Assembly (NCBI GenBank): GCA_963724185.1 | Contig: CAVRTN010000003.1 | Location: 261,085-325,084 of the forward strand | Reading direction: 5' to 3' | Source: Pyrinomonadaceae bacterium | GTDB lineage: Bacteria; Acidobacteriota; Blastocatellia; Pyrinomonadales; Pyrinomonadaceae | Length of the DNA: 64,000 nt | Shown here: positions 3,662 to 41,408 of the stretch, piece by piece | Numbering within the stretch: position 1 is the first letter of the stretch | Layout: every line of letters starts with the position of its first letter | Position numbers and translations under genes: made by a program | The notes under the pieces: generated by a model | What the model was told of the DNA's origin: nothing | What the model saw: only the letters and a program-made list of their open reading frames with translations | Database searches by the model: none

Positions 3662-3681
3662 AGACGATAGTTATTGTCGGT

Positions 3682-3864: not shown

Positions 3865-3877
3865 AATTACTCCGATT

Positions 3878-4471: not shown

Positions 4472-4532
4472 TCCGCATCAAATCACACTCTAGCGCGAAC
4501 AGCGTAAAATATCGGCTAATGCGCAAAAGGTC

Positions 4533-14796: not shown

Positions 14797-16350
<1,554 letters not shown>

Positions 16351-16533
16351 AAGTTGTTTCCTTATTCGAAGTTTTCAGCCGAGGAGAAATGGCCGAGAAC
16401 AGATCAGGGGAGACTTGCGACCCTGCGGACCAGGACAATTGGAAGAACGCGAGCATTCAGCCAAAATTACCAAACTCTGTCAAGGCGATGGGCCGAATCG
16501 AAAGGGGCATCCATTCTTTCCTAAGCCTTCAGT

Positions 16534-16630
16534 CTCTGCGCGATCTCGGCGTTCTCTGCGCGTCGGCGGTTAACAGCTTGAAAATGCACTCAACGCAGAG
16601 ACGCTGAGAACGCGAGGATTGCGCAGAGAG
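16534..16630. repeat. REP-like hairpin ('AEAQR' family)
   Basis: CTCTGCGCGATCTCGGCGTTCTCTGCGCG pairs with CGCAGAGACGCTGAGAACGCGAGGATTGCGCAGAGAG as imperfect inverted repeats. Confidence 0.6.
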
Positions 16631-16700
16631 TTGAAATCAGGTCACGTCACTACATGGAGGCGCCGTCCTCAAGTGAAGGGGTAAATGCGACCGCACTCGC

Positions 16701-16730
16701 TTGACAGCCGTCTTTCCACGGGCGTATAAG
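16701..16730 (+). promoter_or_regulatory. candidate sigma-70 promoter
   Basis: TTGACA (16701-16706), 18 nt, TATAAG (16725-16730). Confidence 0.4.
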
Positions 16731-16736
16731 CACAAT

Positions 16737-16873
16737 GGAAAACGTGGTGAGTTAAGGCGACTTGCGGCCACGTAAAACAACCGCTAAACAGCTCGGGCAA
16801 TCCTGAAAGGACGCACCCGAACAACTTCATTGATTGATGAAGTCCCGCGCTGTTTGGCGCGGGATTTTCTTTT
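16737..16873 (+). ncRNA. candidate ~135-nt small RNA or leader (class unknown)
   Basis: It is bounded by the promoter above and an intrinsic terminator. Predicted hairpins by eye are CGTGG...CCACG (16743-16773), TCGGG-caa-TCCT-gaa-AGGA-cgca-CCCGA, and CTTCAT-tgattg-ATGAAG. There is no ORF. Confidence 0.3.
16844..16873 (+). terminator. Rho-independent terminator
   Basis: CCCGCGC-tgtttg-GCGCGGG followed by ATTTTCTTTT. Confidence 0.6.
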
Positions 16874-19594: not shown

Positions 19595-20222
19595 GGGTTT
19601 TTATGCCACAAACATGCGTCGGTTACGAGCGGTGTGAGAGGGTAAAGCAGGAGAATAGGGTCAATGCAATCAAGCGGTGCCCTTTCCCTTTCGACACTGC
19701 GGCTCAACAGCTAACATTAAACGCATTAAACGCATTGACACGCGTCCATCATTTTGATATTCAATCCGCGCTCAAAAAGCAGCTTTAGGACTCACGAAGT
19801 TCGATCTCCTCCGCCGCGAACCTCGATCCCAGGCCCTGAAGCCATCCAAGGGAACGCTCATTCAGCAACGATAATTGAAATTTGCTCGTTTTTGGGCGGT
19901 ATTTCCGTGTCCGTGGTCCGCCGCAGAAGTTTCCTGCTGCTTAAGGTAGCGCACCCTGAGCTCAGTAGTAGCTCTGCTGGCGCCAGTGGGCCTCATCCTG
20001 ACGCCACGGTATGAGCTACCGGCGCCAGGACACCATACCCCGCCGCCGCTGGATCGTATTATGGCCTCGATGTAACTCATCCTGAGGCCAGGGTATGACA
20101 TCGGGGAGCCAAAGTACGACCTGCGTAAGCCAAAGTTTCATCTAGTTCTCGCCCACTTTTTCACTGGGAGTGGCGGCGGACTATTCTCTCACTCCAAACA
20201 CCGCGTAGTTAGCCAGCAGTAA

Positions 20223-20308
20223 GACAGAACCGGGAGCGACAGCGACCGGGTAATTCGTGAGCCTTCAACCCTGGCGTATACCCGGTCGCTACTGCTCGCG
20301 GTTCTGTC
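20223..20308. repeat. REP-like long hairpin (GACAGAACCGnGAGC...GACCGGGTA family)
   Basis: The 30-nt arms 20223-20252 and 20279-20308 are near-perfect reverse complements, just 3' of the adhesin gene. Confidence 0.75.
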
Positions 20309-20345
20309 TTTGTCGGGGACCGCGAACGGGCGATTTTTGCCGTCG

Positions 20346-22871
20346 TTACTGCTTCGGTCCCACCACTGGTCCATCGCCGACGACGTAGAAGCCGGCCGGT
20401 GGATTGTTTCCATTGCCCACAAAGCTACCACAGCCGCCGCCGCCTGAGCGTTGACCGAGTTAATCGCAGCCTTGCTCTGGTTCGCCGGCACAACCACCGT
20501 TACGTAGGTGACGCTTTGGTTATTCGACGCGTCTGTCGCGATGATGCGGATTATGTAGACGCGGCCATCGCCGCCTCCCTCGCGCTCCGCCCGCAAACGC
20601 AACGTCGTGGGCGCGATGTCTTTTGCGTCAGGCGACATGCCACCTCCGGCAGGCAGATGATCGTCCTCATCGCTGAACACGGCCACCGCGATCGTCGGCA
20701 CCATGCCATCGTTATCGGAGGCCGTAACCGACAACCCAACATTCACCAGATCGTGATTCGGCGGCCACAACATCGCGACGCGCAACCGAAGCATTTACCG
20801 TCGGCGCCTGCGTGTCGTTGATGGTGATCGTCACAGTGGCGACATTTGAATCGACGCTGCCATCGTTTGCCACGTAGTCAAACGTATCCAGCCCAGTGAA
20901 CCCTGCATCCGGCGTGTAACTGAAACTGCCGTCAGCATTGAGCGTCAGCATCCCATTATTTGGGCCATTGCCAACAACATAGGTTGCTGTCAGCGTGTCG
21001 CCGTCCGCATCCGTATCGTTGGTCAGCACGCCCGGCGCTGGTACGTTCAGCGTGGTGTCCTGGTTCATGTTGTAGTTATCGTTGTTGGCTATCGGCGTAT
21101 CGTTGATGTTTGCCACCGCGACATTCACCGTCGCTGTATCGAAACCGCCGTTGCCGTCTGAAATTGTGTAAGTGAAAGAGTCGTTACCGAAAAAGTCGGG
21201 GTTGGGCGTGTAGCTCACCGACGTTCCGTTGTTAGTCGACGGTGCCATTCGCGCCCTGCGTGACCGAGACAACTACGAGCGTATCGCCGTCGGCGTCGTT
21301 GTCATTTGCGAGCACGGTAGATGACATTCGCGCCGCTGTCTTCGAAAACTGCAGCGTTGTCGTCATTGGCAACTGGAGCGTCCGGCACAGGCGTTACCGT
21401 TACGGACACGGTGGCAGTGTCGAAACCACCATTGCCGTCGCCGACTGTGTAGGTGAACGAGTCGCCGCCAAAGAAATTTGCGATTCGGCGTGTAACTGAC
21501 GTTGGCGCCGGCGTTGGTAATAGCAACTGAGCCATTCGCGCCTTGCGTTACCGCCGTGACAGTCAGCGTGTCCATGTCGACATCCGTGTCGTTTGCGAGG
21601 ACATTGATAATGTTCGCGCCGCTGTCTTCAGCTACCACGGCCACATCGTCAACCGCATTTGGCGGAGAACCGACGACGCACATGACCTGCACTTCAAATG
21701 CGCCCACGTCTCCGCCGTCGCCACCAGGCGCATTCGGTGATCGCGCCGTCGTCGCATGGACGCGTCAGGCCGCGCTGGTCCGTTGATGAGCCGCTGCTGT
21801 GTCCTTTGTCGATGGCGATGCTGCCGGCTTGAAGCGCGCGCGTCGGCGTTGGCCCACCGTTGTTTTGCAGTGGACCGAGATTTACCAGGGCGTCGTTGAC
21901 ATTGATCTGATCTGCCGTGCCCGGCGCTGGAATGATCGTTGGATTGAGCGGCAGGTTGTCGCCTAAGTCGCCGATGATGTTGTAGCCAAGGCTGTTGAAT
22001 GTTCCGTCCAGGTTCGGGAGAGAGCCGCCGGGATTGTTGCCGGCCACAATCGTGTTGCGGAGGTTCACGATTCCAGTGTTTCTTATTCCGCCAGTCAGGT
22101 TTTGGAATCCGGGGCCGGTGTTGTTGTTTGTGATCGTGCTGTTGGTGATGTTGGCAACGCCGCTTTCGACAAGGATCGCGCCGGCATGGATGGCTGCGAA
22201 ATTGCCGGTCACGGTGGTGTTGGTCATGTTCAGCGTCGCGTTGTCCCACATGTAGATTCGCGCCGGCGTCGTTGACTGTGGCGACGCTGTTGGAGATGGT
22301 GCAGTTTTCGAGAATGAGCGTCGCACCGCGCAGCTGGATCGCTCCCGCGCCGCCGGGGCCGGTGCCGTTGGTGATGTGAATATTTCGCAGAGTGACGACG
22401 ATGCCGGGGGCGCCTGCAGGATTGATATCGAAGATGCGATCAAGATCGGCAGCGTCAATGGTGGTGCCGTCGGGATGTCCGATAATAGTGAGCGAGTCGG
22501 TGATATCAAGATCGCCGGTCTCGCCGCCGTTTTCCCCACTTCCAGCCAGAGCGAACGTGATCGTTCCCGGCACGTTGAATACGATGGTGTCGTTGCCCGG
22601 GATCGCCGCCCTGACATTGAGGATAGCTGGTGAAGTTGTCGTTGGCATTATTGACCGCCTTGCGAAGCGTGCAGACGTTTGATAGCGGCGCGGGCGGCTG
22701 CGCCAGACTGTCGATTAGAATCTCGACTTGAATTTCGACCGCGCGGGCTGGCGATGCAAAAGCCAACATTGCAAGGCCAATGCAAAGTGTTATGAGCAGG
22801 CGCGAGGCTGCGGAAAGAGCTGGATTCGTTAGAAAAGATGCAGGGGTTGCAAAGTGAACATTCGGGGTCAT
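20346..22871 (-). pseudogene. large secreted adhesin-like protein: CSLREA-type/choice-of-anchor-Q parallel beta-helix, cadherin/VCBS-like repeats and an LWPPNH C-terminal domain; at least 6 frameshifts
   Basis: Fragments:
- 22506-22871: signal peptide, CTLRKAVNNAN.
- 21632-22648 and 21694-22617: GNDTIVFNVPGTITF, LRNTIVAGN, NNGGPTPT.
- 21363-21707, 21302-21535 and 20712-21272: repeats NDTDADGDTLT...GFTG.D.F.Y.
- 20189-20794: LWPPNHDLV.
A frame switch near 20400 gives the tail FVGNGNNPPAGFYVVGDGPVVGPKQ*, ending at 20346. Confidence 0.7.
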
Positions 22872-24329: not shown

Positions 24330-25223
24330 CTACTCAAGCACGTGGCGAAGCGCCGCCTCGAGCTGCGCAAACTTAAACGGGTAGTCTGCCGTTTTCAATC
24401 GCTCAGGCTCAACCCTCTGGCCCGAAAGCAACAGCGCATCTCCCATCTCACCAAATAGGAGACGAACGCCGAAAGCAGGAATCGGAAATATAGTCGGACG
24501 CGACAGCGCATGGCCCAACGTTTTTGTAAACTCCGCATTTGTCACCGGATTTGGCGCGACGAAGTTAACGGGTCCGCTCAGGCTTTCGTTTATCAGCGCA
24601 AACTTCAGCGCGCCGATCACATCATCGAGCGCGATCCAACTCATCCATTGCTTGCCGCTACCGATTTTGCCACCGACGCCCATACGAAATGGCGTCAACA
24701 TTTTTGCCAGCGCGCCGCCTTCTTTGTCGAGAATGATTCCAAAGCGGGCGTTTACCGTGCGGATTCCCTTCTCCTTCGCGTGCGACGTAGCTTTTTCCCA
24801 TTGAACGCAAACATCCGCCAGAAAACTCTTCGCCGGGCGCGCTCGCTTCGGTCAGAAGCTCATCGCCCCGATTTCCGTAGTAACCGATTGCCGAGGCGGA
24901 AATCAGGACCTTTGGCGGACTCGAAAGATTTGCAAGCGCATCGCTTAGTAGTTGCGTTCCACGCGTGCGGCTTTCCAGGATCCGTTTCTTCTTTTCGTCC
25001 GTCCAGCGTCCTTCGGCAATGCTCTCGCCAGCCAGGTGCACTGCGGCATCAAAACCTTCCAGACGCGCCAGGGCGATACTGTAACGGTCGGGGCTCCATT
25101 CAACTTCAGCCTCATCGCGCGGCGCGTAGCGCACCAGACGAAAGATTTCGTGCCCGTCAATTTGGAGCGACTCGATTAATGCTTTGCCGAAAGTCCATGT
25201 GATCCGCTGATTAAGATTCGCAT
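24330..25223 (-). pseudogene. TIGR01777/YfcH-type NAD-dependent epimerase family protein with a DUF1731 C-terminus, 2 frameshifts
   Basis: MRILISGS... begins at 25223. Fragments are 24658-25134 and 24330-24701 (the C-terminus RVEPERLKTADYPFKFAQLEAALRHVL is typical of DUF1731). Confidence 0.8.
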
Positions 25224-25611: not shown

Positions 25612-28600
25612 GTGCTTCGCTTTCGACGTTATCTCTTCGTTCTCCTGGCGGTCGCGGCCCTCTGCGCCATCGGCTGGCAGAGCGCGCGTATGCAGAGCCC
25701 CCTGCGGCGAATCACCAACACCACCGAAGAAGGCAAGAGCCTCAGCCCGACAATCAGTGGCGATGGTCGCATCATCGCCTTTGAGTCAACTAAAGACATC
25801 GCTAATGCCGGGGGCCCCGAAGGGTTCCGCGCCATGCGCGCAAACGTCTCCATCGATCCGCCGACCTTCCTGCAAATGGGTGCAGCTCGCGCGCCGGCGC
25901 CGGCGATTTCGCAGGACGGCTCGCGCATCGCTTTCGCAGCTAAAGAAAACCCGCTCGGCACCAACAGCGATTCCAACTCTGAGATCTTCCTCTACGACGG
26001 GGCGAAGCTAAACCAAATTACTAATACTTCACCGGGCGATGCCTCGCTGCGCGGTGTTAATGGAAACTTCCTTCCCTCCATCTCGGACGACGGGCGATAC
26101 ATCGCTTTTTCCTCAAATCGAAACCTGACCAGCCAAAACGCCGACGGAAACTTCGAAATCTTTGTTTACGATTCGGTCGCTGCGAGTTTTGTCCAGGCCA
26201 CAAACTCGAACAATATCGTCGGTTTCACGGATGCAAAAATCAGCGGTGACGGCGCCAGCCTTTTTTATATTCGCGACACAGGCCTTACGCCGAGCAACAA
26301 TCGCGACCTGGTTAGACAAAACCGTCAAACTCTCTTCGTGGTCGGGCTGCTCGCAACCCAAGCCCCCAAACTCAGTCTGACTTACGGCCGCTCGGTGAGC
26401 GACGATGGACTGCGCGTCGTCTGGTCAGCAGAAACCTCACCCGATGGCAGCCAGGTGTTTCTCTGGGATGGCCGCAATAGTGTAACGCGTCAAATCACAA
26501 ACGCTTGCCGAACGCGTCACTGACGTGCCGCTCCATCCTTCAATCAGCGGCGACGGTTCTCGCATATCCTTTGCCACCCGGCGCACAGTCATGCCGGGCA
26601 ATTCGGATAACAGCATCGAGGTTTACACTTTTGAGATTTCCAGCGGCTCACTCTCGCGAGTAACAAACGCGCCCATCACGGCTGATGGTTTTGAAGGCAG
26701 CCGACGCGACGTAGAAGTCGTCACGTCGCTAAGCGACGACGGCTCGATTATCGCCTTTAACTTTCCGCGCATTATTTCAGGGGCCGTGGTTAACGCGGAT
26801 TTCGTCAACAACTCTGAAATCTATGTCACCGGCACTGCCCCTCGACCGTCATCAGGGACCCTGACGATTCTCAATGGCGCGTCGTTTGGACATGAACCGG
26901 CAACTACGGAGGCAGTCGCGCCCGACAGCGTTGCCGTAGCGCGCGGAGGCGCGTTAGCGTTTCGCTCCGAACAGTCTCAGCCAACTGCCGGCGTTTATCC
27001 GACAACAGTGGCCGGCACGACTGTAACTGTTAACGGTCGTAGCGCTCAGATCTTTTTCGTTTCTCCGACTCAGGTCAATTTCCACGTCCCCGCTGCCACT
27101 GAATTGGGGATCGCCGAAGTTGTCGTCACCAACTCCGACGGCTTCCAGAGTCGCGGCACTATCTCCGTTCTCACCGGCGCGCCCGGCGTTTTCACCAGGA
27201 GCGGCGATGGACTCGGCGAAGGCGTGATTCTCGATGCCAACACGCTGATGCCCGGCCCGTTTGATCCAACCAGCGGAAATCTCCGTTTGATAATTTTCGC
27301 CACCGGCACACGCCGCGCTGCGACAGTCTCAGTGACAGCAGGAAGCCGCGCACTCACCGTTGAATCGAGAATGGAAAACCCGGAGATGCCGGGCATGGAT
27401 GAGATTCATGTGCTGGTGCCTGCCGACCTGCGCGGTGTTGGGAAGGTGGACCTGATCGTTACGGCGGATGGCCGCGACAGCAATCCTGTGATTGTCGAAT
27501 TTATCGGAGACGCTCGCCGCGACGTGTTGATTAACGAATTCCTGGCGGATCCGGCTGCCAGCGATACCGACCCGACGGTGGGCGACGCTAACCGTGACGG
27601 GGTGCGGAGCGCTTCTCAGGATGAATTCATCGAGTTGGTTAACACCACCACTAACGACATCGATATCAGCGGCTATCGAATTTTCACTCGCGGCACCGGC
27701 TCCGACGTCCAACGCCACGTATTCCCATGCGGGCACAGTGCTGCAGATCGTGCAGTGCAATCGTTGTCTTCGGTGGCGGTAATACAAACTTCAATCCAAA
27801 CGATCCCGCATTCGGTGGCGCGCAGGTGGTCAAGGCTTCGTCGGGTGGTATCTCACTCGGTAACGCCGAGGGTGCAATCACTCTGCAGGATCAGACTGGG
27901 GCGATCGTCAATCTCGTGGCTTACGGCGGTTCGTCCGGCATCGAAGCCGACAATGATCAATCGGTAACCCGTTCACCGGACATCACCGGCAGCTTCGCGC
28001 AACATTTAGCTGCCAGCGGCGGTGCGCGTCCCTATAGTCCGGGCACGCAGATTAATGGCTTGCCATTCACTTCATGCACGCCGGCAGTCGCTCGCGTCGA
28101 AGTATTGCCCGCCGCCGCGACCATTGACGCTGGCGCGCAGCAGCAGTTCACCGCTAAGGCGTACGACGCAGCAAACAATGAAATTCCCGGGGTGATTTTT
28201 AGCTGGCAGTCGAGTAACACCGCGGTGGCCACAATTGATCAAAATGGATTGGCCACTGGAATCTCCGCGGGCACAGTCGAGATTCGCGCTACCGGTCGGG
28301 GCGTTCAATCGCCTCCCGCATCGCTGACGGTTAATCCCGTCGCGCCGCCAAACGTGGTAATCAACGAAGTTGACTCTGATCAGACTGGGACAGACACCGC
28401 GGAGTTCGTCGAGATCTTCGACGGCGGTACGGGCAACACTTCGCTGACCAGGCTGGTAGTCGTTTTCTATAACGGCGGCGACGATCAGTCGTACGCCGCG
28501 TTCGATCTCGACGGCTTCAGCACGAACGGCAGCGGCTACTTCACCCTCGGAAGCGCCGCTGTTCCTGGCGTGGACCTCGTCTTCGCTGACGGCTTGATGC

Positions 28601-31600
28601 AAAACGGCCCGGACGCCGTCGCCGTCTATGTAGGCAACGCCACGGATTTCCCCAACGGCACGCCAGTCACCACGACGAATCTTATCGACGCCCTGGTTTA
28701 CGACACGAATGACGCGGACGATGCGGGCTTGCTTACGCTGCTCAACCCCAGCGAGCCGCAGGTCAACGAAGACGCCGGCGGCAATGGCATTACAAACTCA
28801 AATCAGCGTTGCCCGAACGGTTCAGGTGGCCCACGCAACACGTCCACCTATAACCAGTTTGCGCCTACCGCTGACATGGCAAACATTTGCTCGGTCGTCA
28901 CACCCGTTCCCACGCTTTCAATTGACGACGTGTCTGCCAATGAAGGCAACGCCGGCACGACGGTATTCACGTTCACCGTCAGTCTGTCGTCTCCTGCCCC
29001 CGCGGGTGGTGTCACGTTTGATATTGCGACTGCCGATAACACGGCAACTGTTGCCGACAACGATTACGTGGCGAAGAGCCTGACAGCCCAAACGATCGCG
29101 GCCGGCGCGCAGACGTATCAGTTTACCGTCACAGTCAATGGCGACCCGACCGTCGAGCCGAACGAAAGTTTCCTGGTTAACGTGACCAATGTCGCGGGTG
29201 CAACGATGGCGGACGGCCAGGGCGTCGGTACAATTCAGAACGACGACAGTCCGACGCTGAGTATCAACGATGTGTCCGCCAGTGAAGGCAACAGCGGCAC
29301 TACAACGTTCACTTTCACCGTAACGTCAACCTTGCCTGCGCCCGCGGGCGGCATAACCTTCGACATAGCCACCGCCGACGGTACGGCGACTGTCGCCGAC
29401 AATGATTACGTGGCCCGCAGTCTGACCGCGCAAACCATTCCAGCTGGAAATACCACTTACACGTTTGACGTCAGCGTAAACGGCGACGCGCTCGTTGAGG
29501 CAAACGATACGTTCTTCGTAAACCTCAGCAACGTTGCCGGCGCAACTGCACTCGATGGCCAGGGTCAGGGAACAATTCAAAACGACGATGGCGCATTGCT
29601 AGTGATTAGTCAGGTCTATGCCGGGGGCGGAAACGCAGGTGCGCAGTTCACCAACGACTTCGTCGAGATATTCAACCGCGGCACCACGACGGTTAACTTC
29701 GCCAGCACACCTTTCTCAGTTCAGTATGCCGGCGCTACGTCGAGCTTTAGTTCCAACAAAGTGGATCTGACCACGGGCTCAGTCGCTCCCGGACAATACT
29801 TCCTGGTTCAACTGTCAGGCGGCGTGAATGGCGTGGCCTTGCCCACTCCAGATGCGACCGGCAGCATTACGATGGCGGCTACGGCAGGCAAAGTCGCGCT
29901 CGTAAACGGAACCACAGCGCTCAGCGGCAGCGGCTGTCCGTTGGCGCCTTCGGTGGCGGATTTTGTGGGGTACGGTACGACGGCAGACTGTTTTGAGGGA
30001 TCCGGCCGCGCGCCGGCGCCGAGCAACACCACAGCTGATTTCCGAAAGGCCGGCGGCTGTACAGACACGAATGACAACGCGGCAGATTTTCTCGTCTCGG
30101 CGCCCTTCCCGCGCAACACCGGTTCGCCGTTCAACAATTGCGCGGTAGGCACTCCCCCCAATCTGACGATCAATGACGTTACTGTTGTCGAGGGCAACAG
30201 TGGAACTACGACGGCGACATTCACCGTCAGCCTTTCCGCTCCGGCGCCGTCCACCGATGTCATCTTCGATATCGCCACCCAGGACAACACGGCGACGACT
30301 GCGAACAGCGACTACGCTACGAAGACGCTGGCCACCCAGGTAATCCCTGCCGGCCAGCAAACCTACACATTCACTGTCAACGTCAACGGCGATACAGCGG
30401 TCGAACCGGACGAGTCGTTCTTTGTAAACGTCACCAACGTTTCAGGCGCAACGGTGACAGATGGTCAGGGCACGGGAACAATTCAGAATGATGATCTGCC
30501 GGGTTTGACCATCAACGATGTTTCGCAGAACGAAGGCAACAGCGGCGCCTCGGTCTTTACGTTTACCGTTAGCCTTTCCATCGCGGCCCCCACAGGCGGG
30601 GTTACTTTTGACATCGGCACCCAGGACAACACCGCGACGACCGCGGATAACGACTACGTGTTGCGCAGCCTGACGTCGCAAACGATCCCGGCCGGAAGCA
30701 GTACGTATACTTTCGACGTCACAGTCAACGGCGACGCTGTCATCGAAAATAATGAAACCTTCTTCGTTAATGTGACCAACGTTTCCGGCGCTACAGTCCT
30801 GGACGGACAGGGCCAGGGCACAATTCAAAACGACGACAGTCCGAACCTCAACATCAATGACGTCTCGGCCAACGAAACCAACAGCGGCACCACGGTGTTC
30901 ACGTTTACCGTAACTTCTACGCTGCCGGCACCGGCGGGCGGAATCACGTTTGACATCGCTACGGCCGATGGCACCGCACAGGACGATAATCCGGTAACTG
31001 AAGACAACGACTACGTGGCGCGCGCGCTGACTAGTCAAACGATTCCGGCAACGCAAACCACTTATACCTTTGACGTCACCGTAAACGGCGACACCACGAT
31101 CGAGCCGGACGAAACGTTCTTCGTAAATATCAGTAACGCCACCGGCGCCACTATCAGCGACGGTTCGGGCATCGGCACAATTCTTAACGACGACACTCCG
31201 GATTTAGTGATCAGCCAACTCTACGCCGGCGGTGGAAACACAGGCGCACAATTCACCAACGACTTCGTCGAGATCTTTAATCAGGGAACAACGACAGTTG
31301 ATTTCGCCACCACACCTTTCTCAGTTCAGTATGCCGGCGCCACCGCCACGTTCGGATCAAGCAAAGTTGATCTAATCTCTGGCTCAATCGCACCGGGTCA
31401 ATACTTCCTGGTGCAACTGAGCGGCGGGGCGAATGGTTCACCATTGCCGACTCCGGATGCGACTGGATCAATTCCGATGGCTGCGACTGCCGGCAAGGTG
31501 GCGTTAGTTCTCGGAACAACTGCACTAAGCGGCTCGGCCTGTCCCCTGACGACAAACGTCGTCGATTTTGTCGGGTACGGCACGACGGCAGACTGTTTTG

Positions 31601-34600
31601 AGGGTTCTGGTCGCGCTCCGGCGCCAAGCAATACCACGGCTGATTTCCGCAGGAATGGCGGCTGCACCGACACCAACGACAATGCGGCTGACTTCCTCGT
31701 GTCGGCGCCCTTCCCGCGCAACACAAGTTCGCCGCTGAACAACTGCGTGGCCGGTGCTGCTCCTAATCTGACAATTGCCGACGTTTCGTTTGCCGAAGGC
31801 AACACTGGCACAACGATCGCAACCTTCACCGTTAGTCTTTCTGCTCCTGCGACTGCGTCCGATATCACCTTCGATATCGCCACGGCTGACGGCACTGCGC
31901 AGGATGACAATCCGACAACTGAAGACAACGATTACGTCGCGCGCACATTGACCAGCCAGGTGATTCCCGCCGGCCAGACAACGCTACACGTTCACGGTCA
32001 ACGTTAATGGCGATGTGGTAGTTGAAAATGATGAAACGTTCTTCGTAAACGTTACTAACGCTACCGGCGCCACGATCACTGACGGTCAGGCAGTAGGCAC
32101 TATCCAAAACGATGATGCACCCGCGTTAACAATTAACGACGTCTCCCAGAATGAAGGCAACGCCGGGACGAGCATATTTACCTTTACGGTGAATCTTTCC
32201 GCGCCTGCGCCAACCGGCGGCGTGACTTTTGATATCGCGACTGCTGACGGTACGGCGCAGGACGACACTCCCGCAACTGAAGACAACGATTACGTGGCCC
32301 GTTCGCTTACGTCGCAGACCATTGCTGCCGGTAATTCAACGTTCACGTTCGACGTCACCGTTAATGGCGACGTGAATATCGAGCCAGGCGAAACTTTCTT
32401 CGTCAACGTTACCAACGTCACCGGCGCTACTGTCGCCGATGGCCAGGGCCAGGGCACGATTCTCAACGACGATAGTCCATCCTTGAGCATCGCTGATGTC
32501 TCGGCAAATGAAACCAACAGCGGCACTACGATCTTTACTTTCACTGTCACGTCATCGCTACCTGCTCCCGCCGGTGGCATCACCTTCGACATCGCGACCG
32601 CCGACGTCACGGCGCAGGACGATAACCCGATAACCGAAGATAACGACTACGTGGCAAAGAGCCTGACGGGTCAGACGATCCCGGCCACGCAAACAACTTA
32701 CACTTTCGACGTTACCGTCAACGGAGACACTTTCGTCGAGCCGGATGAAACATTCGTCGTCAACATTACCAATGCTTCCGGCGCCGACGTCGCAGACGGT
32801 TCGGCAACCGGGACAATCGTGAACGACGACGTCGCTAATGTGGTGATTAGCCAGATCTATGGCGCTGGTGGCAATGCCGGGGCGACGCATCAAAACGATT
32901 TCATCGAAATCTTCAATCGCGGAACCACTACAGTGAATCTCGCCGGCTGGTCCGTGCAATACGTCGCAGCAACCGGAACCGGCACATGGTCTGTGACAGG
33001 TCTCACCGGAACGCTTGTGCCAGGCCAGTACTATCTGGTTCAGGAGGCCGGCGGCGCCAACGGTAGCCCTTTACCTACTCCGGACGCGACTGGTTCAATA
33101 TCGATGGCCGCCACCGCTGGCAAGGTCGCGCTCGTCAGTAACGGCACCGCTCTAACGGGGGGATGCCCCACCAGCGTCAACATCATCGACCTCGTAGGTT
33201 ACGGAACCACCGCGACTTGCTTCGAAGGAACCGGACCAGCGCCGGCGCCTGGCACCACTACCGCTGACCTCCGGAAGGTCGGAGGCTGCACCGACACCAA
33301 CGACAACGCGACGGACTTTTTGACCGCGACGCCAACGCCACGGAACACTGCTTCGCCATTAAACGACTGCAATGCGCCGCCCAATCTGACTATCGATAAC
33401 GTCTCGATAACCGAGGGCAACGCGGGAACTGTAGTCGCAAACTTTACCGTCAGCCTGTCGTCTGCTGCCCCGGTTGGCGGCGTCACGTTTGACATTGCTA
33501 CCGCCGACGACACTGCGCAGGATGATAATCCGGCCACCGAAGACAACGACTACGTTGCGAACTCCCTGACAACGCAAACGATCACGGCCGGAAATTCAAG
33601 CTATAACTTCGCCGTCACTATTAATGGCGACGTTATCGTCGAACCAAATGAAACATTTTTCGTCAACGTGACCAATGTCACGGGTGCGACGGTAGTTGAC
33701 GGGCAGGGCGTGGGTACTATTCAGAATGATGACAGCGCGGTAGTTCCAACGTTGTCTGTGAATGACGTCTCGCTAAGCGAGGGCAACACAGGAACCACGA
33801 CTTTCGCGTTCACAGTCAGTCTTACTGCAGCAGCGCCGGTAGGGGGCGTCACCTTCGATATCGCAACCGCTGACGGCACAGCGCAGGATGATAATCCTGC
33901 CACCGAAGACAACGACTACGTCGCTCAAAGCCTGACGACGCAAACGATCACCGCCGGGAATACTTCATACACGTTCAACGTTACGGTCAACGGCGACGCC
34001 GTGGTCGAACCAAACGAAACCTTCTTCGTTAACGTCACCAATGTATCGGGAGCCACGCCGGGCGACGGCCAGGGCCAGGGGACGATTCAAAACGACGACT
34101 CGGCTGCATCTCCAGGCGCCATCCTGATCAGCCAGGTCTACGGCGGCGGCGGCAATGCCGGCGCGCCGTTTACGCACGATTTCATCGAATTGTTTAATCG
34201 AGGCGGGACTGCCGTTGATGTGACGGGATGGTCCGTTCAGTACAACTCGGCTACCGGAACCGGCGCGTTCCAAGTCACACCGATATGCCCGACTGGTCCA
34301 TGTCTGATCCAACCAGGACAATATTTCCTGGTGCAGGAAGCTTCGAATGCTGCCGTCGGGAGTGCCTTGCCGACTCCGAACGCGACTGGAACAATCATCA
34401 TGGCCGCGACGGCAGGCAGAGTGGCCGTCGTTTCCAGTACCACCGCAATCGCAGCCAGTGCCACCTGCGGCACCCAATTGTCCTCCGCGGTTGATTTCGT
34501 TGGTTATGGTGGCACGGCAATCTGCTTCGAAGGCGCCGCCGCGGCTCCTGCACCCAGCGCCACCAACTCCGACCAACGCGCCGCGGGCGGGTGCACAGAC

Positions 34601-34804
34601 ACCAACGTAAATTCTGCAGACTTCGCCACCGGCGCGCCGAATCCGCGCAACAGCAGTTCACCATTAAACGTTTGCGCCGGCCCCGAACCCCAGCCCGAAA
34701 AACCGTCCCGTGCCATAGACGCAAGCGATATGGGCTTTGTCATCACAGGCTTCATCGGTCCTCCAAATTACCGGGCCTTCGGTCGTCGATTCCCTGTCCG
34801 CTGA
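25612..34804 (+). pseudogene. giant (~3,060-codon) secreted multidomain protein: signal peptide, PD40 propeller, TIGR03437-like Ig, LTD, Big_2, LTD, then 10 Calx-beta units interleaved with 4 LTDs; about 4 frameshifts
   Basis: Same-strand fragments 25612-26523, 26525-27967, 27727-32007 and 32015-34804 read through without loss of similarity at the junctions (~26500, ~27728, ~27755, ~32000). Motifs are listed in the findings. Confidence 0.8.
28909..34680 (+). repeat. intragenic tandem array of Calx-beta-like (~115 codons) and lamin-tail-domain (~185 codons) modules
   Basis: Calx-beta unit ends (I/L-x-NDD) fall at 29247, 29589, 30495, 30837, 31194, 32116, 32473, 32830, 33733 and 34099. LTDs are at ~29590-30150, 31195-31760, 32831-33376 and 34100-34680. 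Confidence 0.85.
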
Positions 34805-34845: not shown

Positions 34846-35904
<1,059 letters not shown>

Positions 35905-35918
35905 GAGAGACTTTCAAA

Positions 35919-37427
35919 GTGAACCACGTAAAACTCAAAAGCCTTTCACTGCTCGCTGCTTTTCTGATCATTGTTATCAGCGCCCAGACGCTATCAGGCC
36001 ACGCGCTCGCGGGTCAGCGCGCCGGTCGTGCCCAAAATGCGGCATTGCTGACGCCAGCCCGCGTTCGCGAGGAGTTTCTTCACGCGTGGAATGGTTACAA
36101 GAAATACGCGTGGGGCCACGACGATCTAAAACCCTTAAGCAAGACCCATCACGACTGGCATGCCGAGCCACTCCTAATGACGCCGGTCGATGCCCTCGAC
36201 ACGATGATTCTCATGGGCTTGAACGACGAGGCGAGGAAGACGCGTAAATACATCACAGCGAATCTTAGTTTCGACAAAGACATCTACGTTCAGAATTTCG
36301 AGATCACTATTCGGCTGCTGGGCGGATTGCTTTCAAGTTATCAAATGACCGGCGATAAGCGACTGCTGGCCCTCGCGGAAGATCTGGGCAACCGCTTGCT
36401 CCCCGTTTTTGAGTCGCCCACCGGGCTTCCTTATCGCTACGTGAATCTGAAGACCGGCAAGGTGCGCGACGCCCGCACCAATCCCGCCGAAGCGGGCACA
36501 TTACTGGTCGAGTTTGGCACCTTGAGCAAACTTACCCGTCGTCCCGTGTTCTACGACAAGGCAAAACGCGCCCTGGTTGAGATTTACAAACGCCGCTCGA
36601 CGATCGGTTTAGTCGGCACCTGGATCAATGTGGAGACAGGTGAATGGGTTAATACCGATAGCCACATCAGCGGCGCCATCGATAGCTACTACGAGTATTT
36701 GCTGAAGTGCTGGTTGTTGTTTGATGACCAGGATTGCAAACGCATGTGGACCGACAGCATCGCAGCGATCCACCGTTATCTTTCTGACAACGTCGACCGC
36801 GGCCAGCGAGTTCTAAAACGAGAGCTTTGGTATGGCCACGCCGACATGAATACCGGCGTCCGGAAGGCGACTACCTACGGGGCGCTGGATGCATTTTTCC
36901 CCGCGGTGCTGGCGCTTTCGGGCGACTATCATAGCGCCGCACTTTTGCAGAAATCGTCAGTGAAGATGTGGGACCAATGGGGCATCGAGCCTGAGGAGAT
37001 TAACTATAAGACCCTGGAAGTGGTTTCGCCTGGATATCCGCTCAGGCCTGAAATTATCGAGTCCACTTACTATCTCTATCATTACGCATCGATGGATCCG
37101 GTGACTCTAAGTAGACGTCCCTCACTGGGACCGCGAGCGTCTCGACCGCAATCTACCGGGAGAAGACTTTTACCGCATGCATCGACGTACCGCCGGGAAG
37201 GCGAACAAATGTTTGCAGACTTCGTCAAGCACTGTCGCGTGGACGCCGGTTATGCCGCACTCGAGAGTGTCGTCACCAGGAAGCACTCCGACTCAATGCC
37301 GAGCTTTCTCTTTGCCGAAACTTTCAAATACTTCTACCTGCTGAGCGCACCGCCTACTACGCTCGACTTCGAGAAGGTCATCTTCAACACCGAGGCTCAT
37401 CCGATTCGCCGCACGTGGCGAAACTGA
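35919..37427 (+). CDS. glycoside hydrolase family 47 (class I alpha-1,2-mannosidase-like), secreted
   Basis: A signal peptide is present. GH47 hallmarks are FEITIRLLGGLLSSY, TLLVEFGTLSKLT, GAIDSYYEYLLK, LRPEIIESTYYLY, FAETFKYFYLL and FNTEAHP. Confidence 0.85.
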   Translation: MNHVKLKSLSLLAAFLIIVISAQTLSGHALAGQRAGRAQNAALLTPARVREEFLHAWNGYKKYAWGHDDLKPLSKTHHDWHAEPLLMTPVDALDTMILMGLNDEARKTRKYITANLSFDKDIYVQNFEITIRLLGGLLSSYQMTGDKRLLALAEDLGNRLLPVFESPTGLPYRYVNLKTGKVRDARTNPAEAGTLLVEFGTLSKLTRRPVFYDKAKRALVEIYKRRSTIGLVGTWINVETGEWVNTDSHISGAIDSYYEYLLKCWLLFDDQDCKRMWTDSIAAIHRYLSDNVDRGQRVLKRELWYGHADMNTGVRKATTYGALDAFFPAVLALSGDYHSAALLQKSSVKMWDQWGIEPEEINYKTLEVVSPGYPLRPEIIESTYYLYHYASMDPVTLSRRPSLGPRASRPQSTGRRLLPHASTYRREGEQMFADFVKHCRVDAGYAALESVVTRKHSDSMPSFLFAETFKYFYLLSAPPTTLDFEKVIFNTEAHPIRRTWRN

Positions 37428-37495: not shown

Positions 37496-39085
37496 TCAGC
37501 CCACTCGACCCTTAACGAGACCTTCGTGCGCATCGAATGCTCTCATAGCGTCATCGGTGGTCGAGATGGAATTCAGATCAATGACCGCGCCGGTGTGTTG
37601 TTTCAAACGGTCGGCGGCGGCGGCGATCAAGTGGCGATGCATATCCGAGAGCGGGTGCGCGCCACATCCTTTGAAGGCTGGCGGCGGAATCGGTTTGATG
37701 TCAGGTACGTCATCGCGTGGCTTGTCTCGGGACAACACTTCACTCACGTCGTGTCGCGCCTTTGTCTCGTCTCCGTCAGATGCTCACCACGTAGCCAGCG
37801 CTCCGACGCGGTCTTAATAATAGAAGTGTGATCGAAGACTCTGCTGCAAACAGTTCCCTCCTCGATCAAAGGTGAAACCAGAATCGCGGGCACGCGAACG
37901 CCATAACGCTTGAAGTCGAATCCACTGTAGCCGGGATGACCTGGCGGAGGAAATCTGTCGTCGGGAGCAACCGCGAACGGCGGCGGCGTGGGCACGTGAT
38001 CGTAGCACCCGCCGTGCTCATCAAAAGTTATCACCAGCAACGTGCTCTTCCAGTCTGGTCCACGACGCAGCGCATCGTAGACTCTGTAAACGAAATCCTC
38101 GCCATTCAAAACATTTGTGGCCGTTCCGGTCTCGGTAACTGCGAAGGCCGGGTGCATGTCGTTTTCAGGACCATACGTGCTGCTGCACAACATGTTAGGC
38201 TCAATGAACGTGTAGCTCGGCAGTCCACCCGGGGTCGCAGCGTCGGCGAAAAACTCCGCAATGGGTGTGAAGTGACGACCCAGCGGCGCAAATTCCCATA
38301 GCCTTTCCTGGATCATCAAAGCGTTGCACAAGAGTAGCGGGCCGCTGTGATAGATCCGCCAATCGATTCCGGCCCTCGAGAGGAGGTTGTAAATTGTGTC
38401 GGTGTTGTTTAGCAGGTAGCCAATGTCCCAGGGATGCGGCCCGGTTTTCCAGCCGTTGACGACGTAGCCGGAAGAGGTTGCCGCATGGACAAACGACCGA
38501 TTAGGGAAGGTTTGAGTGGGCACGGAACTGAACCAGTGATCACAAACTGCGTAAGCGCGCGCCAGGCCATTCATCACCGGCAAGCGATCGGGCGTAAAAC
38601 AATTCATGATGATGCCCGGATCCGTCGCCATCGGACTGTTGCCGCGAAACAGACGAAGCGAGAATTCGGCTGCAGCCTTTTTTCGCCACACCCGCGGCTT
38701 CGATAGCCTCGGCATAATTGATCACGAAACCTTCCATACTCGGCGAGGTCGTAGGGTTAGGAACTGGATTCGGATTCGACTGATCGTTGTACATCTGCGC
38801 GTAGACATCGGCATAAGGCTCGTTGGGATCTGGATAGGGATCGATGTTTGAGGTTCCTTTACCGACGCAGGCTTTGTTAACTGAAACATCTCCGCCGCCA
38901 GGCCGTGGATTGCATAAGACTTTCCCAGAGACCCCGTCGAACTTCTGATCCCGCGGCACTTTATCGAATGGGGGTTTGTTGTCCGGGTCGTAGAGCCAAC
39001 CCAGAACGTTGTCAAACGATCGGTTCTCGAGCATCAGCACCACAATATGGTCGATGCGATTCAAAGCATTTTGATCAGTTGCCAT
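37496..39085 (-). pseudogene. phosphoesterase family protein (phospholipase C / AcpA-like acid phosphatase), at least 2 frameshifts
   Basis: Fragments are 38540-39085 (IDHIVVLMLENRSFDN), 37744-38715 (FIEPN...NDMHP, ITFDEHGGCYDHV) and 37496-37747 (C-terminal continuation in another frame). Confidence 0.8.
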
Positions 39086-39386: not shown

Positions 39387-41408
39387 ATGCATTCCATTGC
39401 CGACGCCCTCACATCTTTGCGCGAACATTTCGGTTTCTCCGATTTTCGTGAAGGTCAGCGTGAAGTTGTCACCGCCATTCTCGAGGGTAAAGATGCCGTG
39501 GTTGTAATGCCTACGGGCAGCGGCAAGTCTCTCTGTTATCAGCTTCCTGCCTTGATGCTCGACGGCGCCACCGTCGTAGTTTCCCCGCTGATCGCGCTGA
39601 TGAAAGATCAGGTCGACGCGCTTCACGCGCGCGGCCTACCCGCCACGTTCATCAACAGTTCGATCGACGCGTCGGAACAGGGAAAACGGATTCATGGGCT
39701 GCGTCGCGGCGAGTTCAAGCTGGTGTATGTCGCGCCTGAACGCTTTCGCAGTGGCAGGTTTCTCGAGGCGCTCCAGTCGCTGCACATTTCTCTGTTTGCA
39801 GTTGACGAGGCCCACTGCATTTCCACCTGGGGTCACGACTTCCGTCCTGATTATCTCGCGCCTGAAGAAAGTGGTCCAGTCGCTCAATAGCGGTGACGCG
39901 CGCGCCCGCAAACTCTCGCGCTTACAGCCACCGCCACGCCCTATGTGCGTTCAGACATCATCGAACAACTTGGATTGATCGCGCACCCGAGCACTTTTGT
40001 CAGCGGCTTTGACCGACCAAACCTGACCATCGACGTGGTCCATACTGAAAAGGATCGAGAGAAGGTCGGGAGGATCAAGCGACTCGCGAAAACCACGTGA
40101 TGGCGGCTCAGGAATTATTTACGCATCTACTCGCAAAGCGGTGGAGCAAGTAACCAATCACTTAGCGCCGAGGGGCTGAGCGTGACTGCCTATCACGCCG
40201 GCCTGGGTGATGCATCGCGTGTGAAGGCGCAGAACGAATTCATGTCGGGTGCGGCCCAGATGATCGTGGCCACCAACGCATTCGGCATGGGCATCGACAA
40301 GCCGGACATCCGATTTGTTGCTCATTATCAAATGCCCGGGTCGATTGAAGCCTACTATCAGGAGATTGGCCGCGCCGGACGTGACGGCCTTCCTTCTTCA
40401 TGCGTTTTGCTTGTTCAACTACGCCGACAAAAACACGCACGACTTTTTCATCGAGGGTTCTTATCCAGGACCGGAACTGGTCAAAGAAGTTTACGCTTCG
40501 CTTACTGGCGACCGGCTTGAAGCGGATAGAACTCTCGGCGTCCGAAATAGCGAAGCGCGCCGGCGCTCGTAACGAGATGGCGGTTCAATCTGTTCTCTAC
40601 CTGCTCGAACGCGCCGGTCACATCGCCAGGAGTTCCTACGACCAACGCACTGCCCGATGAACCCCCTCCATGGGAAACCGCGGCCAGAATCAAATCAGAA
40701 GGAGCGGTGGTCTCGAAGGGATCGGGCGCGACTGCGTCTTCTGGCAAGAGTCAGCCGCGCCGCGGTCGTAGCATCATCATGTTGGACCAGGCGCCGTTGA
40801 CAGCTCTCCGCGTCGAGTCTGGTGATGTTGCTCGCCGGGCAGCGCTTGAGCGTCGAAAGCTGCGAGAGATTATCGAGTTTTGTTATACGGAGCACTGCTA
40901 TCGCGCTCATATCCTTGACTACTTCGGCGACCGTCATCATGCACGCAGGTGCGGCACGTGTGGAAATTGTGCGCCAACTTCTCCTGCACGAACTCCGTTA
41001 ATCGGTGACGAGTTAGTGTCTGCCACTGTACCGTCCAGCCGAAAGTTAAAAGGCACAAAAGCTGCATCGGTCCCGTCGCTTCGTGCACTCACTACTGCGG
41101 AACATCTACGCGTGCGAAAGATACTCGCCTGTGCCGCCCGCTTGAAGGGACGATTTGGCAAAACAATTCTGGCGAACACGCTGCGCGGCTCAGCGGCCAA
41201 GGCCATAATGCAATCCCACCTGAACGAGCTGTCGACCTATGGGATTCTGAAAGAAATGCGACTTGAGGAGTTGCTCATCCTGATTGATTCGCTGGTCGCG
41301 GCAGAGTGTCTCAAGCTGAGTGGCGGAAACTATCCAACGGTTTCCATTACTGACCTGGGGGAACGGGTAATGCGCGAGCAGGCGCAGGTAGAGTTGAGAC
41401 TAGATTAG
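39387..41408 (+). pseudogene. recQ: ATP-dependent DNA helicase RecQ, at least 4 frameshifts
   Basis: 39387-39890 carries FREGQREV, MPTGSGKSLCYQLPAL and DEAHCISTWGHDFRPDY. 40182-40520 carries ATNAFGMGIDKPDIRFV and QEIGRAGRDG. 40707-41408 carries the CGTCGNC zinc motif, the RQC domain and the C-terminal domain. Confidence 0.85.

Follow-up and report, generated by a model that had tools for sequence, protein, structure and literature searches.

A giant Calx-beta/LTD repeat protein of Pyrinomonadaceae, probably an adhesin-like scaffold, and its family in Acidobacteriota

In a 64,000-nucleotide stretch of a Pyrinomonadaceae genome (contig CAVRTN010000003.1; here, the window), we identified a single giant gene whose product combines an N-terminal propeller and Ig region with ten Calx-beta units and six LTDs or LTD-like units, arranged largely as repeated (Calx-beta)n-LTD supermodules (Table 1). 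It belongs to a position-conserved, fast-remodeling family of Pyrinomonadaceae and Blastocatellia. We favor, with a probability of roughly 60%, the interpretation that the protein is an exported, probably calcium-stiffened, adhesin-like scaffold of the cell surface or matrix in which the LTDs serve as tethering or binding nodes.

Table 1. Features of the giant gene and its downstream neighbors in the window (positions are those of the window)
Feature	Position	Strand	Basis or remark
Giant gene, 3,062 codons + stop	25612..34804	+	Corrected frame; collinear with the 2,950-aa ORF of L001
Signal peptide or signal anchor, MLRFRRYLFVLLAVAALCAIGWQSARM, GTG start	25612..25692	+	By eye from translation
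PD40/TolB-like beta-propeller, aa 28-415	25693..26857	+	PF07676; frameshift 26503 inside
TIGR03437 (Soli_cterm) Ig-like module, aa 416-633	26858..27511	+	Profile match
LTD a, aa 634-815, VLINEF...DEFIELVN	27512..28059	+	PF00932, 54.2 bits; frameshifts 27728 and 27743 inside
Big_2, aa 816-907	28060..28335	+	PF02368, E = 1.3e-10
LTD b, LTD-like, aa 908-1097, VVINEV...AEFVEIFD	28336..28905	+	PF00932, 25.8 bits
Supermodule 1: Calx-beta 1-2 (28906-29589), LTD 3 (29590-30150)	28906..30150	+	Profiles, motifs, repeats
Supermodule 2: Calx-beta 3-5 (30151-31194), LTD 4 (31195-31755)	30151..31755	+	Profiles, motifs, repeats
Supermodule 3: Calx-beta 6-8 (31756-32830), LTD 5 (32831-33379)	31756..33379	+	Motifs, self-built HMMs; frameshift 31984 inside Calx 6
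Supermodule 4: Calx-beta 9-10 (33380-34099), LTD 6 (34100-34681)	33380..34681	+	AF2 models, Foldseek
C-terminal tail, basic, 40 aa, GPEPQPEKPSRAIDASDMGFVITGFIGPPNYRAFGRRFPVR + stop	34682..34804	+	No known sorting signal found
Aldo/keto reductase, between giant gene and GH47	34858-35904
GH47 alpha-mannosidase-family gene, N-terminal hydrophobic signal	35919..37427	+	PF01532, E = 4e-113; N terminus from translation

One continuous gene interrupted by assembly errors

The locus appears in the window as four plus-strand ORFs (25612-26523, 26525-27967, 27727-32007, and 32015-34804), which the initial annotation had read as one gene. This reading holds: removal of four single extra bases (+1), at 26503, 27728, 27743, and 31984, joins the ORFs into a frame of 9,189 nt without internal stops, and the orthologs are single ORFs. 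The shifts number four rather than three, as the second ORF junction contains two of them 15 nt apart. The public ortholog in another Pyrinomonadaceae metagenome-assembled genome (MAG; L001, DATMDU010000171.1), which shows 95% identity over the N-terminal 1,095 aa, is uninterrupted and collinear across junctions 1 and 2, which contain three of the frameshift sites, and both extra bases in LTD a are visible in the DNA alignment to it; the fourth site lies within a segment missing from L001, where other homologs span it. Between 12.6 and 39 kb of the window, at least 13 +1 shifts and 2 further ambiguous ones strike the neighboring metH-like, DPPIV, epimerase, and PF04185 genes and, further on, nuoL; their density in these genes (about 1 per 2 kb) is about equal to that in the giant gene. 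Against L001, dN/dS is 0.05 to 0.09 along the whole length of the gene. On the strength of the shifts in the neighbors, the uninterrupted ortholog, and the low dN/dS, we conclude that the gene is intact, continuous, and under purifying selection and that each of the four interruptions results from the erroneous insertion of a single base in the assembly.

Were the locus a true pseudogene decaying in this strain, the four frameshifts would be real mutations, in keeping with the position of all four extra bases outside homopolymers and with the public record, where the last fragment is entered as an independent protein of 929 aa. We regard this as very improbable given the comparable shifts in nuoL and the metH-like gene, the freedom of the corrected frame from both stops and deletions, the selection evident from dN/dS, and the similar splitting of the ortholog in another long-contig MAG (L002). 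The likelihood that the ORFs are several independent genes is close to nil: each could begin with its own GTG or ATG, but the junctions cut domains mid-fold (a PD40 blade, LTD a, and Calx 6), and comparison with the single-ORF orthologs refutes separate starts. Programmed frameshifting was also rejected, as none of the four sites has a slippery sequence, the reading frame of the orthologs runs straight through the three sites that can be compared, and errors of this type occur throughout the window. The locus illustrates how systematic insertion errors can break up a large gene, and because its last piece is filed publicly as a protein of its own, it needs frame-aware annotation.

Domain architecture

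Profile searches, motif positions, self-built HMMs, and DNA repeats agree with the domain order and unit counts proposed initially, namely, signal peptide, PD40 propeller, TIGR03437 Ig module, LTD, Big_2, LTD-like unit, and then Calx-beta units and LTDs (L) in the pattern 2-L-3-L-3-L-2-L. The hydrophobic N-terminal signal is also kept in L001 and in three intact database proteins of 2,472 to 2,583 aa (P0001, P0002, and P0004). PD40 (PF07676) scores 67 to 75 bits (cutoff, 20.9), the propeller region shows partial matches to the TolB and Dpp5 propellers, and homologs of the giant protein carry PF26549 Tricorn_N. The TolB model (TIGR02800) reaches only 29 to 32 bits, on the propeller part alone, against 343 bits for the full-length equivalog; as judged from sequence, the propeller has PD40 repeats in common with TolB, but the protein is not a TolB. 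The TIGR03437 module is recognized over profile positions 3 to 222 of 225 with 101 bits (98 bits on the corrected sequence; cutoff, 29.05) and is internal, with about 2,400 of the 3,062 residues following it, rather than C-terminal as the name of the model implies.

Searches of the translation likewise support the LTD and Calx-beta assignments. Calx-beta (PF03160; cutoff, 27 bits) is matched with scores of 117 and 72 bits. When the units of the corrected sequence are scored singly with PF00932 (cutoff, 34.3), LTD 4, LTD 5, and LTD 6 reach 39.6, 55.9, and 55.4 bits, respectively, in addition to LTD a (Table 1), whereas LTD 3 alone (33.7 bits) is just below the cutoff. LTD b had been counted as a full LTD; the resemblance stands, but because its score lies below the cutoff and only its N-terminal half matches (profile positions 4 to 52), it is a partial, subthreshold match. 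The ten Calx-beta units and their alternation with LTDs are recovered concordantly from motif positions, self-built HMMs, and ten-copy DNA repeat families. The four ISQ(V/I/L)Y-type LTDs had been described as having four Cys each; four conserved Cys are indeed present in every one, with LTD 6 having six in total.

No catalytic family was matched in Pfam or NCBIfam searches of the protein, and PEP-CTERM, T9SS Por_Secre_tail, LPXTG, autotransporter, and T1SS/RTX signals are lacking in ORF4 (Pfam/NCBIfam, E ≤ 0.01), which bears out the earlier description of a protein with neither an enzyme domain nor a recognizable sorting signal. A hidden catalytic domain was considered and rejected, since the self-built HMMs leave no unassigned interdomain segment of >70 aa in the window protein. 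The C-terminal 72-aa stretch matches nothing in NCBIfam at E ≤ 10, and the 41-aa tail matches nothing in Pfam at E ≤ 0.01. This tail is present in L001 and absent from P0001, P0002, and P0004, which stop right after the last LTD; its dN/dS is 0.4, calculated over only 40 codons. Its "PEP...hydrophobic...RR" pattern was dismissed as a degenerate PEP-CTERM, as the hydrophobic stretch spans only about 10 residues, the model gives no matches, and the tail is absent from most family members.

Predicted folds, calcium-type motifs, and charge

The profile matches and structural models together establish the domain identities and predicted folds of the protein. An AF2 model of supermodule 4 (pLDDT, 81.6) contains a Calx-beta pair that matches NCX1 CBD12 in Foldseek (E = 8e-13), and a single modeled Calx domain superimposes on NCX1 CBD1 with a TM score of 0.79. 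The LTD 6 model (pLDDT, 90.5; pTM, 0.90) matches the Ig tails of lamin A/C and lamin B1 (probability, 1.0; TM, about 0.6) and has an additional Cys-rich C-terminal extension of about 70 aa. Modeling of a Calx-Calx-LTD unit, which had been proposed as a check of the assignments, thus predicts the expected folds. Neither a single LTD nor profiles built for LTD and Calx recovered anything significant in sequence searches of the PDB; matches to an astrovirus spike and to malectin (E > 0.3) were set aside as chance.

The acidic, calcium-type motifs EGN, DxDY, NGD..E..E.F, and NDD are invariant in nine aligned Calx units and align to the acidic segments of NCX1 CBD1, the sequence match itself being weak (E about 0.03). 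Two of the classical Asp ligand positions are occupied by N or G in the window units. Judging from these motifs, the Calx-beta units probably bind calcium. The 309-kDa protein as a whole carries a strong negative charge, with a pI of about 4; its mature form contains 312 acidic and 100 basic residues, and every LTD unit is itself acidic (pI 4.1 to 4.4; D+E > K+R).

A large family with conserved position and variable repeats

The initial annotation knew of no described architecture like this one. This was not borne out: MAGs of Pyrinomonadaceae, Blastocatellia, and Acidobacteriota encode at least 120 intact proteins in the databases that obey this grammar, their (Calx)n-LTD supermodules numbering from one to four. 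The architecture is already annotated in related genomes, albeit under generic names ("lamin tail domain-containing protein" and "uncharacterized protein (TIGR03437 family)") rather than with a known function, and our survey of the literature on TIGR03437 and on Pyrinomonadaceae or LTDs with Calx-beta found no published experiment on any family member. The window protein is joined to this family by the same grammar, collinear alignment, and the same neighborhood (synteny), with identities of 56 to 95% over the N-terminal 900 to 1,095 aa for the fetched loci; for the listed proteins, the best local alignments give 51 to 83%. Architecture strings place an LTD in the terminal position in every intact member.

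The window copy is the longest seen and has the most supermodules. L001 lacks Calx-beta 6 to 8 and instead has one Calx unit and an unmatched segment of about 125 aa that reads by eye as DUF11-like. The family is conserved in position and remodels fast. It is of interest for being large and strongly conserved (dN/dS about 0.05) and for occupying the same genomic site throughout a group of soil bacteria that is itself widespread.

Genomic neighborhood and the link to GH47

The giant gene lies in a syntenic block comprising metH-like, epimerase, giant, GH47, PNPOx, recQ, thiG, and nuo genes. GH47 is found downstream of the ortholog in L001, L002, L006, L010, L012, and L013/14, and its start overlaps the stop of the giant gene in L010, L012, and L013. 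It is thus a conserved downstream neighbor and is possibly cotranscribed with the giant gene; a scan for promoters and terminators found no more sites than in shuffled sequence.

This arrangement raises the prospect that the giant protein is a glycan-binding partner of GH47: it would bind polymers rich in mannose (glycans of fungi or plants, or exopolysaccharide of the cell itself), and the cotranscribed, exported GH47 would trim them. The recurrence of GH47 after the ortholog in seven genomes (65 to 95% identity), the start/stop overlaps, the hydrophobic N-terminal signal of GH47, and the occurrence of LTDs beside oligosaccharide-binding domains (Mans et al. 2004, as cited in PMC6085458) are consistent with it. 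However, the whole block is syntenic, so the adjacency may reflect only vertical inheritance; the aldo/keto reductase separates the two genes in both the window and L001; a 57%-identical ortholog in L011 has no GH47 neighbor; and no carbohydrate-binding module family was detected with Pfam. We consider this partnership unlikely.

The LTD subtype and extracellular DNA

The LTD subtype of the window protein is very widespread, occurring in about 13,700 proteins, and had been thought normally to accompany ExeM/NucH-like nucleases. Among 42 randomly sampled proteins carrying an ISQ(V/I/L)Y-type LTD, 6 have a nuclease or phosphoesterase domain, i.e., Endonuclease_NS (3), Exo_endo_phos_3 (2), or PLDc_2 (1), so that the association exists, but most of the sample consists of multi-LTD proteins without an enzyme; T9SS tails occur in 5 of the 42. 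The ExeM model (NF033680) yields a negligible 11 bits (cutoff, 1300; E = 0.069) on one LTD unit only, with nothing else recovered from NCBIfam by single LTD units at E ≤ 10, and neither an EEP nuclease nor an OB/YhcR-like domain was found with Pfam/NCBIfam.

These associations bear on the possibility that the LTDs bind extracellular DNA (eDNA) and that the protein captures or organizes matrix eDNA, which it may pass on to nucleases and phosphatases close by. In addition to the six enzyme-linked cases, a PF04185 phosphoesterase is encoded nearby in the window, the ortholog in L011 is flanked by an S1-P1 nuclease and a PF04185 gene, LTD-nuclease fusions have been reported from DNA-degrading bacteria and haloarchaea, and ExeM without its LTD degrades DNA more slowly in vitro (PMC6085458). 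The same LTD is nevertheless dispensable for DNA degradation in vivo (PMC6085458), 36 of the 42 sampled proteins have no nuclease, and the ExeM match is negligible. The strong acidity of the protein and of all its LTD units argues against direct DNA binding, as a polyanion is unlikely to be bound unless bridged by cations. Overall, a role in eDNA binding appears improbable.

Proposed role

We return to the calcium-stiffened scaffold as the preferred interpretation. The protein would be exported through Sec; the hydrophobic N terminus, the four invariant Cys per LTD, and the T9SS tails on some proteins with this LTD subtype speak for an exported location. The Calx-beta pairs and triplets would be rigid, calcium-binding spacers. 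The LTDs, disulfide bonded, recurring at intervals along the rod, and invariably closing it, would be the nodes that tether or bind a polymer of the cell envelope or matrix, and the N-terminal propeller and Ig region may form a separate ligand-binding head. It is this combination of spacer arrays, nodes, and head that suggests an adhesin-like surface or matrix scaffold, whose length would be tuned by the number of supermodules. With no nameable outer-membrane route and no anchor motif, the protein may alternatively be located in the periplasm.

A bolder extension, to which we assign little likelihood, sees in the (Calx-beta)n-LTD supermodule a new kind of module from which extracellular fibers are built. 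The disulfide-locked LTD that always ends the protein would itself bind a polymer of the outer membrane or matrix and so take the place of a classical sorting or anchoring signal. If true, these Acidobacteriota would make surface rods that depend on calcium and can be adjusted in length, with no need for PEP-CTERM, T9SS, or T1SS signals. Carrying six LTDs but no enzyme domain, the window protein offers a clean system for examining LTD ligands. A function as a membrane or surface tether has been proposed for the LTD and is still hypothetical (PMC6085458, PMC6461901, PMC12021427).

Comparison with known systems

The window protein agrees with its database family in domain order, genomic position, and terminal LTD and differs in having four supermodules with ten Calx units, the most seen; its basic tail is common only to its closest relative, L001, from which it differs in the composition of supermodule 3.

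Its LTDs open with a motif similar to that of ExeM/NucH, I-S-x-x-Y/V...N..[IV]E[IL][FY]N. ExeM/NucH proteins are extracellular, as is probable for the window protein, and have an N-terminal LTD directly after the signal peptide. Unlike them, the window protein has six LTDs instead of one and has no YhcR/OB or EEP nuclease domains.

The tandem Calx-beta fold predicted here resembles that of NCX1/CALX CBD12, with aligned acidic motif segments. In NCX1/CALX, however, the domains lie in the cytosolic loop of an ion exchanger, whereas the ten window units, in which some ligand positions are substituted, probably function in an extracellular bacterial context.

LapA and MpIBP are giant calcium-dependent repeat adhesins of Gram-negative bacteria, i.e., very long, acidic, presumably Ca2+-stiffened arrays of beta-sandwiches with ligand-binding modules and a strain-variable repeat number. 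The window protein is comparable in its great length, acidity, and beta-sandwich repeat arrays and probably also in calcium stiffening, ligand-binding modules, and variation of repeat number, but it has an N-terminal Sec signal instead of a C-terminal T1SS signal, its repeats are Calx-beta/LTD rather than BIg, and neither RTX repeats nor a retention module was found in it with Pfam/NCBIfam.

Finally, the planctomycete "planctosome" protein (2,210 aa, with a signal peptide) is likewise large, exported, and LTD bearing, and in a model that is itself hypothetical, its LTD has been proposed to be an outer-membrane tether (PMC6461901). It carries P-domains and has cohesin/dockerin partners, in contrast to the window protein, which has none of these and is built instead from Calx-beta/LTD supermodules.

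A single giant gene carrying insertion errors

The large gene (25612-34804, plus strand), read in the initial annotation as one gene in four open reading frames (ORFs), holds together as such: three-frame translation of the junctions keeps protein sense across every ORF break, the corrected frame is free of stops, and orthologs are intact. At ~26503, a PD40 blade ending in RQITN runs on as AERVTDVPLHPSISGDG, and at 31984, a Calx-beta strand ending in QTT runs on as YTFTVNVNGDVVVENDETFFVN. A lamin tail domain (LTD) motif at 27725-27751 uses all three frames in turn (RHVFP/AGTVL/SCSAIVVFGGG), and the second junction thus contains two shifts. Taking out bases 26503, 27728, 27743, and 31984, none of which lies in a homopolymer (0/4), gives a frame of 9,189 nt, 3,062 codons, and 0 internal stops.

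A scan with one genome per species recovered an ortholog, L001, from a Pyrinomonadaceae metagenome-assembled genome (MAG; DATMDU010000171.1) as a single 2,950-aa ORF that shares 95% identity with the window protein across the N-terminal 1,095 residues and is collinear with the corrected protein from first to last residue, one supermodule (a run of Calx-beta units followed by an LTD) excepted. DNA alignment with L001 places one surplus base in the window at each of three comparable sites, and in other intact homologs (2,472 to 2,583 aa), matching residues bridge all of the junctions. The dN/dS between the window gene and L001 is 0.05 to 0.09 in each part of the gene, and the ortholog in a second, long-contig MAG (L002) is split similarly. 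Single-base +1 shifts are pervasive at 12600-39100 and 57171-58815 (~1 per 2 kb); at least 13 of those in neighboring genes consist of one extra base and 2 are ambiguous, a density equal to that in the large gene. The fragmented recQ is one gene of 674 to 788 aa in the orthologous loci. On the basis of the intact orthologs, the shifts in neighboring genes, purifying selection, and the L002 split, we attribute the frameshifts to insertion errors; the same observations make it very unlikely that the gene is a real pseudogene. The window looks like an unpolished, insertion-prone assembly, and every ORF call in it therefore needs a frame-aware check. The last fragment (32015-34804) is represented in the public collection (NCBI/ENA, 452,274-bp contig) by its exact 929-aa product as a protein in its own right; thus, the deposited annotation appears to split the gene.

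Features of the large gene (nucleotides, then residues of the corrected product) and of its surroundings
Feature	Position	Strand	Remarks
ORF 1	25612-26523	+	Frame 1
ORF 2	26525-27967	+	Frame 2
ORF 3	27727-32007	+	Frame 1
ORF 4	32015-34804	+	Frame 2
Signal peptide or signal anchor	Residues 1-27	+	Read by eye; kept in orthologs
PD40 propeller	Residues 28-415	+	67-75 bits
TIGR03437 Ig module	Residues 416-633	+	101 bits
LTD a	Residues 634-815	+	54 bits after frame correction
Big_2	Residues 816-907	+	E = 1.3e-10
LTD b	Residues 908-1097	+	25.8 bits, partial, under cutoff
Calx1-2, LTD3, Calx3-5, LTD4, Calx6-8, LTD5, Calx9-10, LTD6	Residues 1098-3022	+	
Basic tail	Residues 3023-3062	+	
DPPIV gene	~12991 and 13850		Two shifts
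metH-like/MTHFR gene	~17255, 17353, 18263		Three shifts
Big_9/cadherin gene	20189-21272	-	One shift (20712-20794 overlap)
Epimerase, NAD-dependent	24333-25191	-	One or two shifts (~24835); in all orthologous loci
Aldo/keto reductase	34858-35904		Inserted between large gene and GH47 in window and L001
GH47-family (alpha-mannosidase) gene	35919-37427	+	N-terminal hydrophobic signal; conserved downstream neighbor
PF04185 phosphoesterase (acid phosphatase/phospholipase C family)	37499-39040	-	Two genes downstream of large gene; two shifts (~37760, 38670)
recQ in pieces	39387-41408	+	DEAD-domain piece 39387-39890; RecQ_Zn_bind/RQC piece 40707-41408
nuoL	57766-57983 overlap		One shift
L011 PF04185 and S1-P1 nuclease genes	3570-4487 and 15169-16746 (L011)		

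Domain architecture and family

Profile matches and unit counts agree with the domain order first read from the translation. Pairwise protein identity is 60 to 82% among the Calx units and 59 to 83% among the four ISQxY-type LTDs (LTD3 to LTD6); because their identity in DNA is just 63 to 77%, we regard the repeats as old, maintained duplications and rule out an assembly artifact. Units 3/4/5 find their best partners in units 6/7/8, which indicates duplication of a three-unit Calx block. Profile searches against Pfam and NCBIfam matched no catalytic family, the sole enzyme-named hits being noncatalytic propeller parts of TolB and Dpp5, and domain HMMs built from the protein itself left no unassigned interdomain segment of >70 aa. 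Models for PEP-CTERM, T9SS, LPXTG, autotransporter, and RTX signals gave no match, with the tail tried up to E ≤ 10. The initial reading of a protein with neither an enzyme domain nor a recognizable sorting signal was thereby confirmed. Most intact relatives stop a few residues past the last LTD (...SCP), and the 40-aa tail is common to the window protein and L001 only.

The view that this architecture was undescribed did not survive, since public databases contain many members of the family, filed under generic names. With the N-terminal half as the query, 680 proteins were recovered. Nearly all of the best 120 come from MAGs of Pyrinomonadaceae, Blastocatellia, or Acidobacteriota, and those of the 120 that bear a name are called "lamin tail domain-containing protein" or "uncharacterized protein (TIGR03437 family)." Annotated with HMMs built from the window protein's own units, these 120 share one grammar, propeller-TIGR03437-LTD a-Big_2-LTD b-(Calx n-LTD) m, with m = 1 to 4. 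Variants have extra Big_2/LTD units or a ~125-aa segment outside the unit HMMs, and proteins with the latter carry PF01345 (DUF11) in precomputed Pfam lists. Among these 120, an LTD is the last domain in every intact member, and the supermodule count is highest in the window protein. This is also the longest protein seen in the family, which is known but uncharacterized.

L001 is the closest relative of the window protein, and the two differ by a module swap: three Calx-beta units at window positions 31756-32830 are replaced at ~16100-17100 of L001 by an unmatched ~125-aa segment, DUF11-like by eye, and one Calx unit. The dS between the two is 1.19 in the C-terminal third versus ~0.5 elsewhere. 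Thus, modules are rapidly exchanged or remodeled, each under purifying selection, and the swap, with the ~2-fold-higher C-terminal dS, is suggestive of recombination, either among repeats or among alleles.

A search of 1.84 billion representative proteins with a profile built on the 185-residue ISQxY-type LTD matched 13,748 of them at E ≤ 1e-3 (4,127 at E ≤ 1e-30). Many of these proteins have two to six copies, and in many a unit comes straight after the N terminus. In a random sample of 42 of the top 149, Pfam recorded an LTD in 42/42, Calx-beta in 7, a T9SS tail (Por_Secre_tail) in 5, Endonuclease_NS in 3, Exo_endo_phos_3 in 2, PLDc_2 in 1, and otherwise several kinds of Ig-like domains; these fractions are rough because the top-scoring set favors multicopy proteins. 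The proposed association of this LTD with nucleases therefore exists, but in a minority only, and multi-LTD proteins without an enzyme are common in the sample.

Genomic neighborhood

The gene order is fixed: metH-like, epimerase (opposite strand), large gene, GH47, PNPOx, recQ, thiG, and nuo. GH47 is downstream of the large gene in seven genomes, its start overlapping the large-gene stop in three (L010, L012, and L013). In the more distant ortholog locus L011, PF04185 directly downstream and an S1-P1 nuclease upstream are found instead. Together with the PF04185 gene two genes downstream in the window, this hints weakly at a neighborhood for scavenging phosphate or nucleic acids. A 230-aa ORF upstream of the large gene (24510-25202, plus strand) is spurious, the real gene being the minus-strand epimerase. 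The window lacks a 460-aa membrane protein that is encoded ahead of the large gene in L001 and L012. A second, frameshifted repeat gene (Big_9/Cadherin_5/Cadherin_4) lies between the metH-like gene and an esterase; it may be a strain-specific insertion, as the gene tables of L010 and L013 list no counterpart at that position.

Predicted function and comparison with known structures

The mature product (309 kDa, pI 4.05, 312 D+E versus 100 K+R) is an exported (signal read by eye), disulfide-containing, strongly acidic protein built solely from beta-sandwich and propeller modules. Each Calx unit has 13 to 18 acidic and 0 to 1 basic residues. We infer that these units bind Ca2+ because their EGN, DxDY, NGD..E..E.F, and NDD positions are invariant in the alignment and correspond to acidic stretches of NCX1 CBD1. 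Ca2+-bound units would then serve as stiff spacers and the LTDs as binding or tethering nodes. Because the last domain of every family member is an LTD and no member has a sorting signal, the terminal LTD may take the role of an anchor. In the literature, a membrane or surface tether is the usual hypothesis for bacterial LTDs (PMC6085458, PMC6461901, PMC12021427), and an LTD has a modest in vitro effect on ExeM nuclease activity (PMC6085458). Binding of extracellular DNA by the LTDs is made less likely by their acidic character (pI 4.1 to 4.4 per unit) but may occur if cations bridge the two. Glycan binding with a GH47 partner is suggested by gene adjacency, but this adjacency sits inside a generally syntenic block.

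The structure prediction proposed in the initial annotation was run on Calx9-Calx10-LTD6 with AlphaFold2 and an alignment of 21 homologous supermodules (mean pLDDT, 81.6). In Foldseek, the Calx pair resembles the CBD12 structures of NCX1 and CALX (E down to 8e-13), and a single Calx domain matches CBD1 with a TM of 0.79. LTD6, modeled alone (pLDDT, 90.5; pTM, 0.90), has ~70 additional residues with four invariant Cys after the sandwich; its matches are a Bacteroides DUF4876 protein and, at a probability of 1.0 and a TM of ~0.6, the Ig-fold tails of lamins A/C and B1. The predicted folds thus agree with the NCX1/CALX CBD12 and lamin tail structures.
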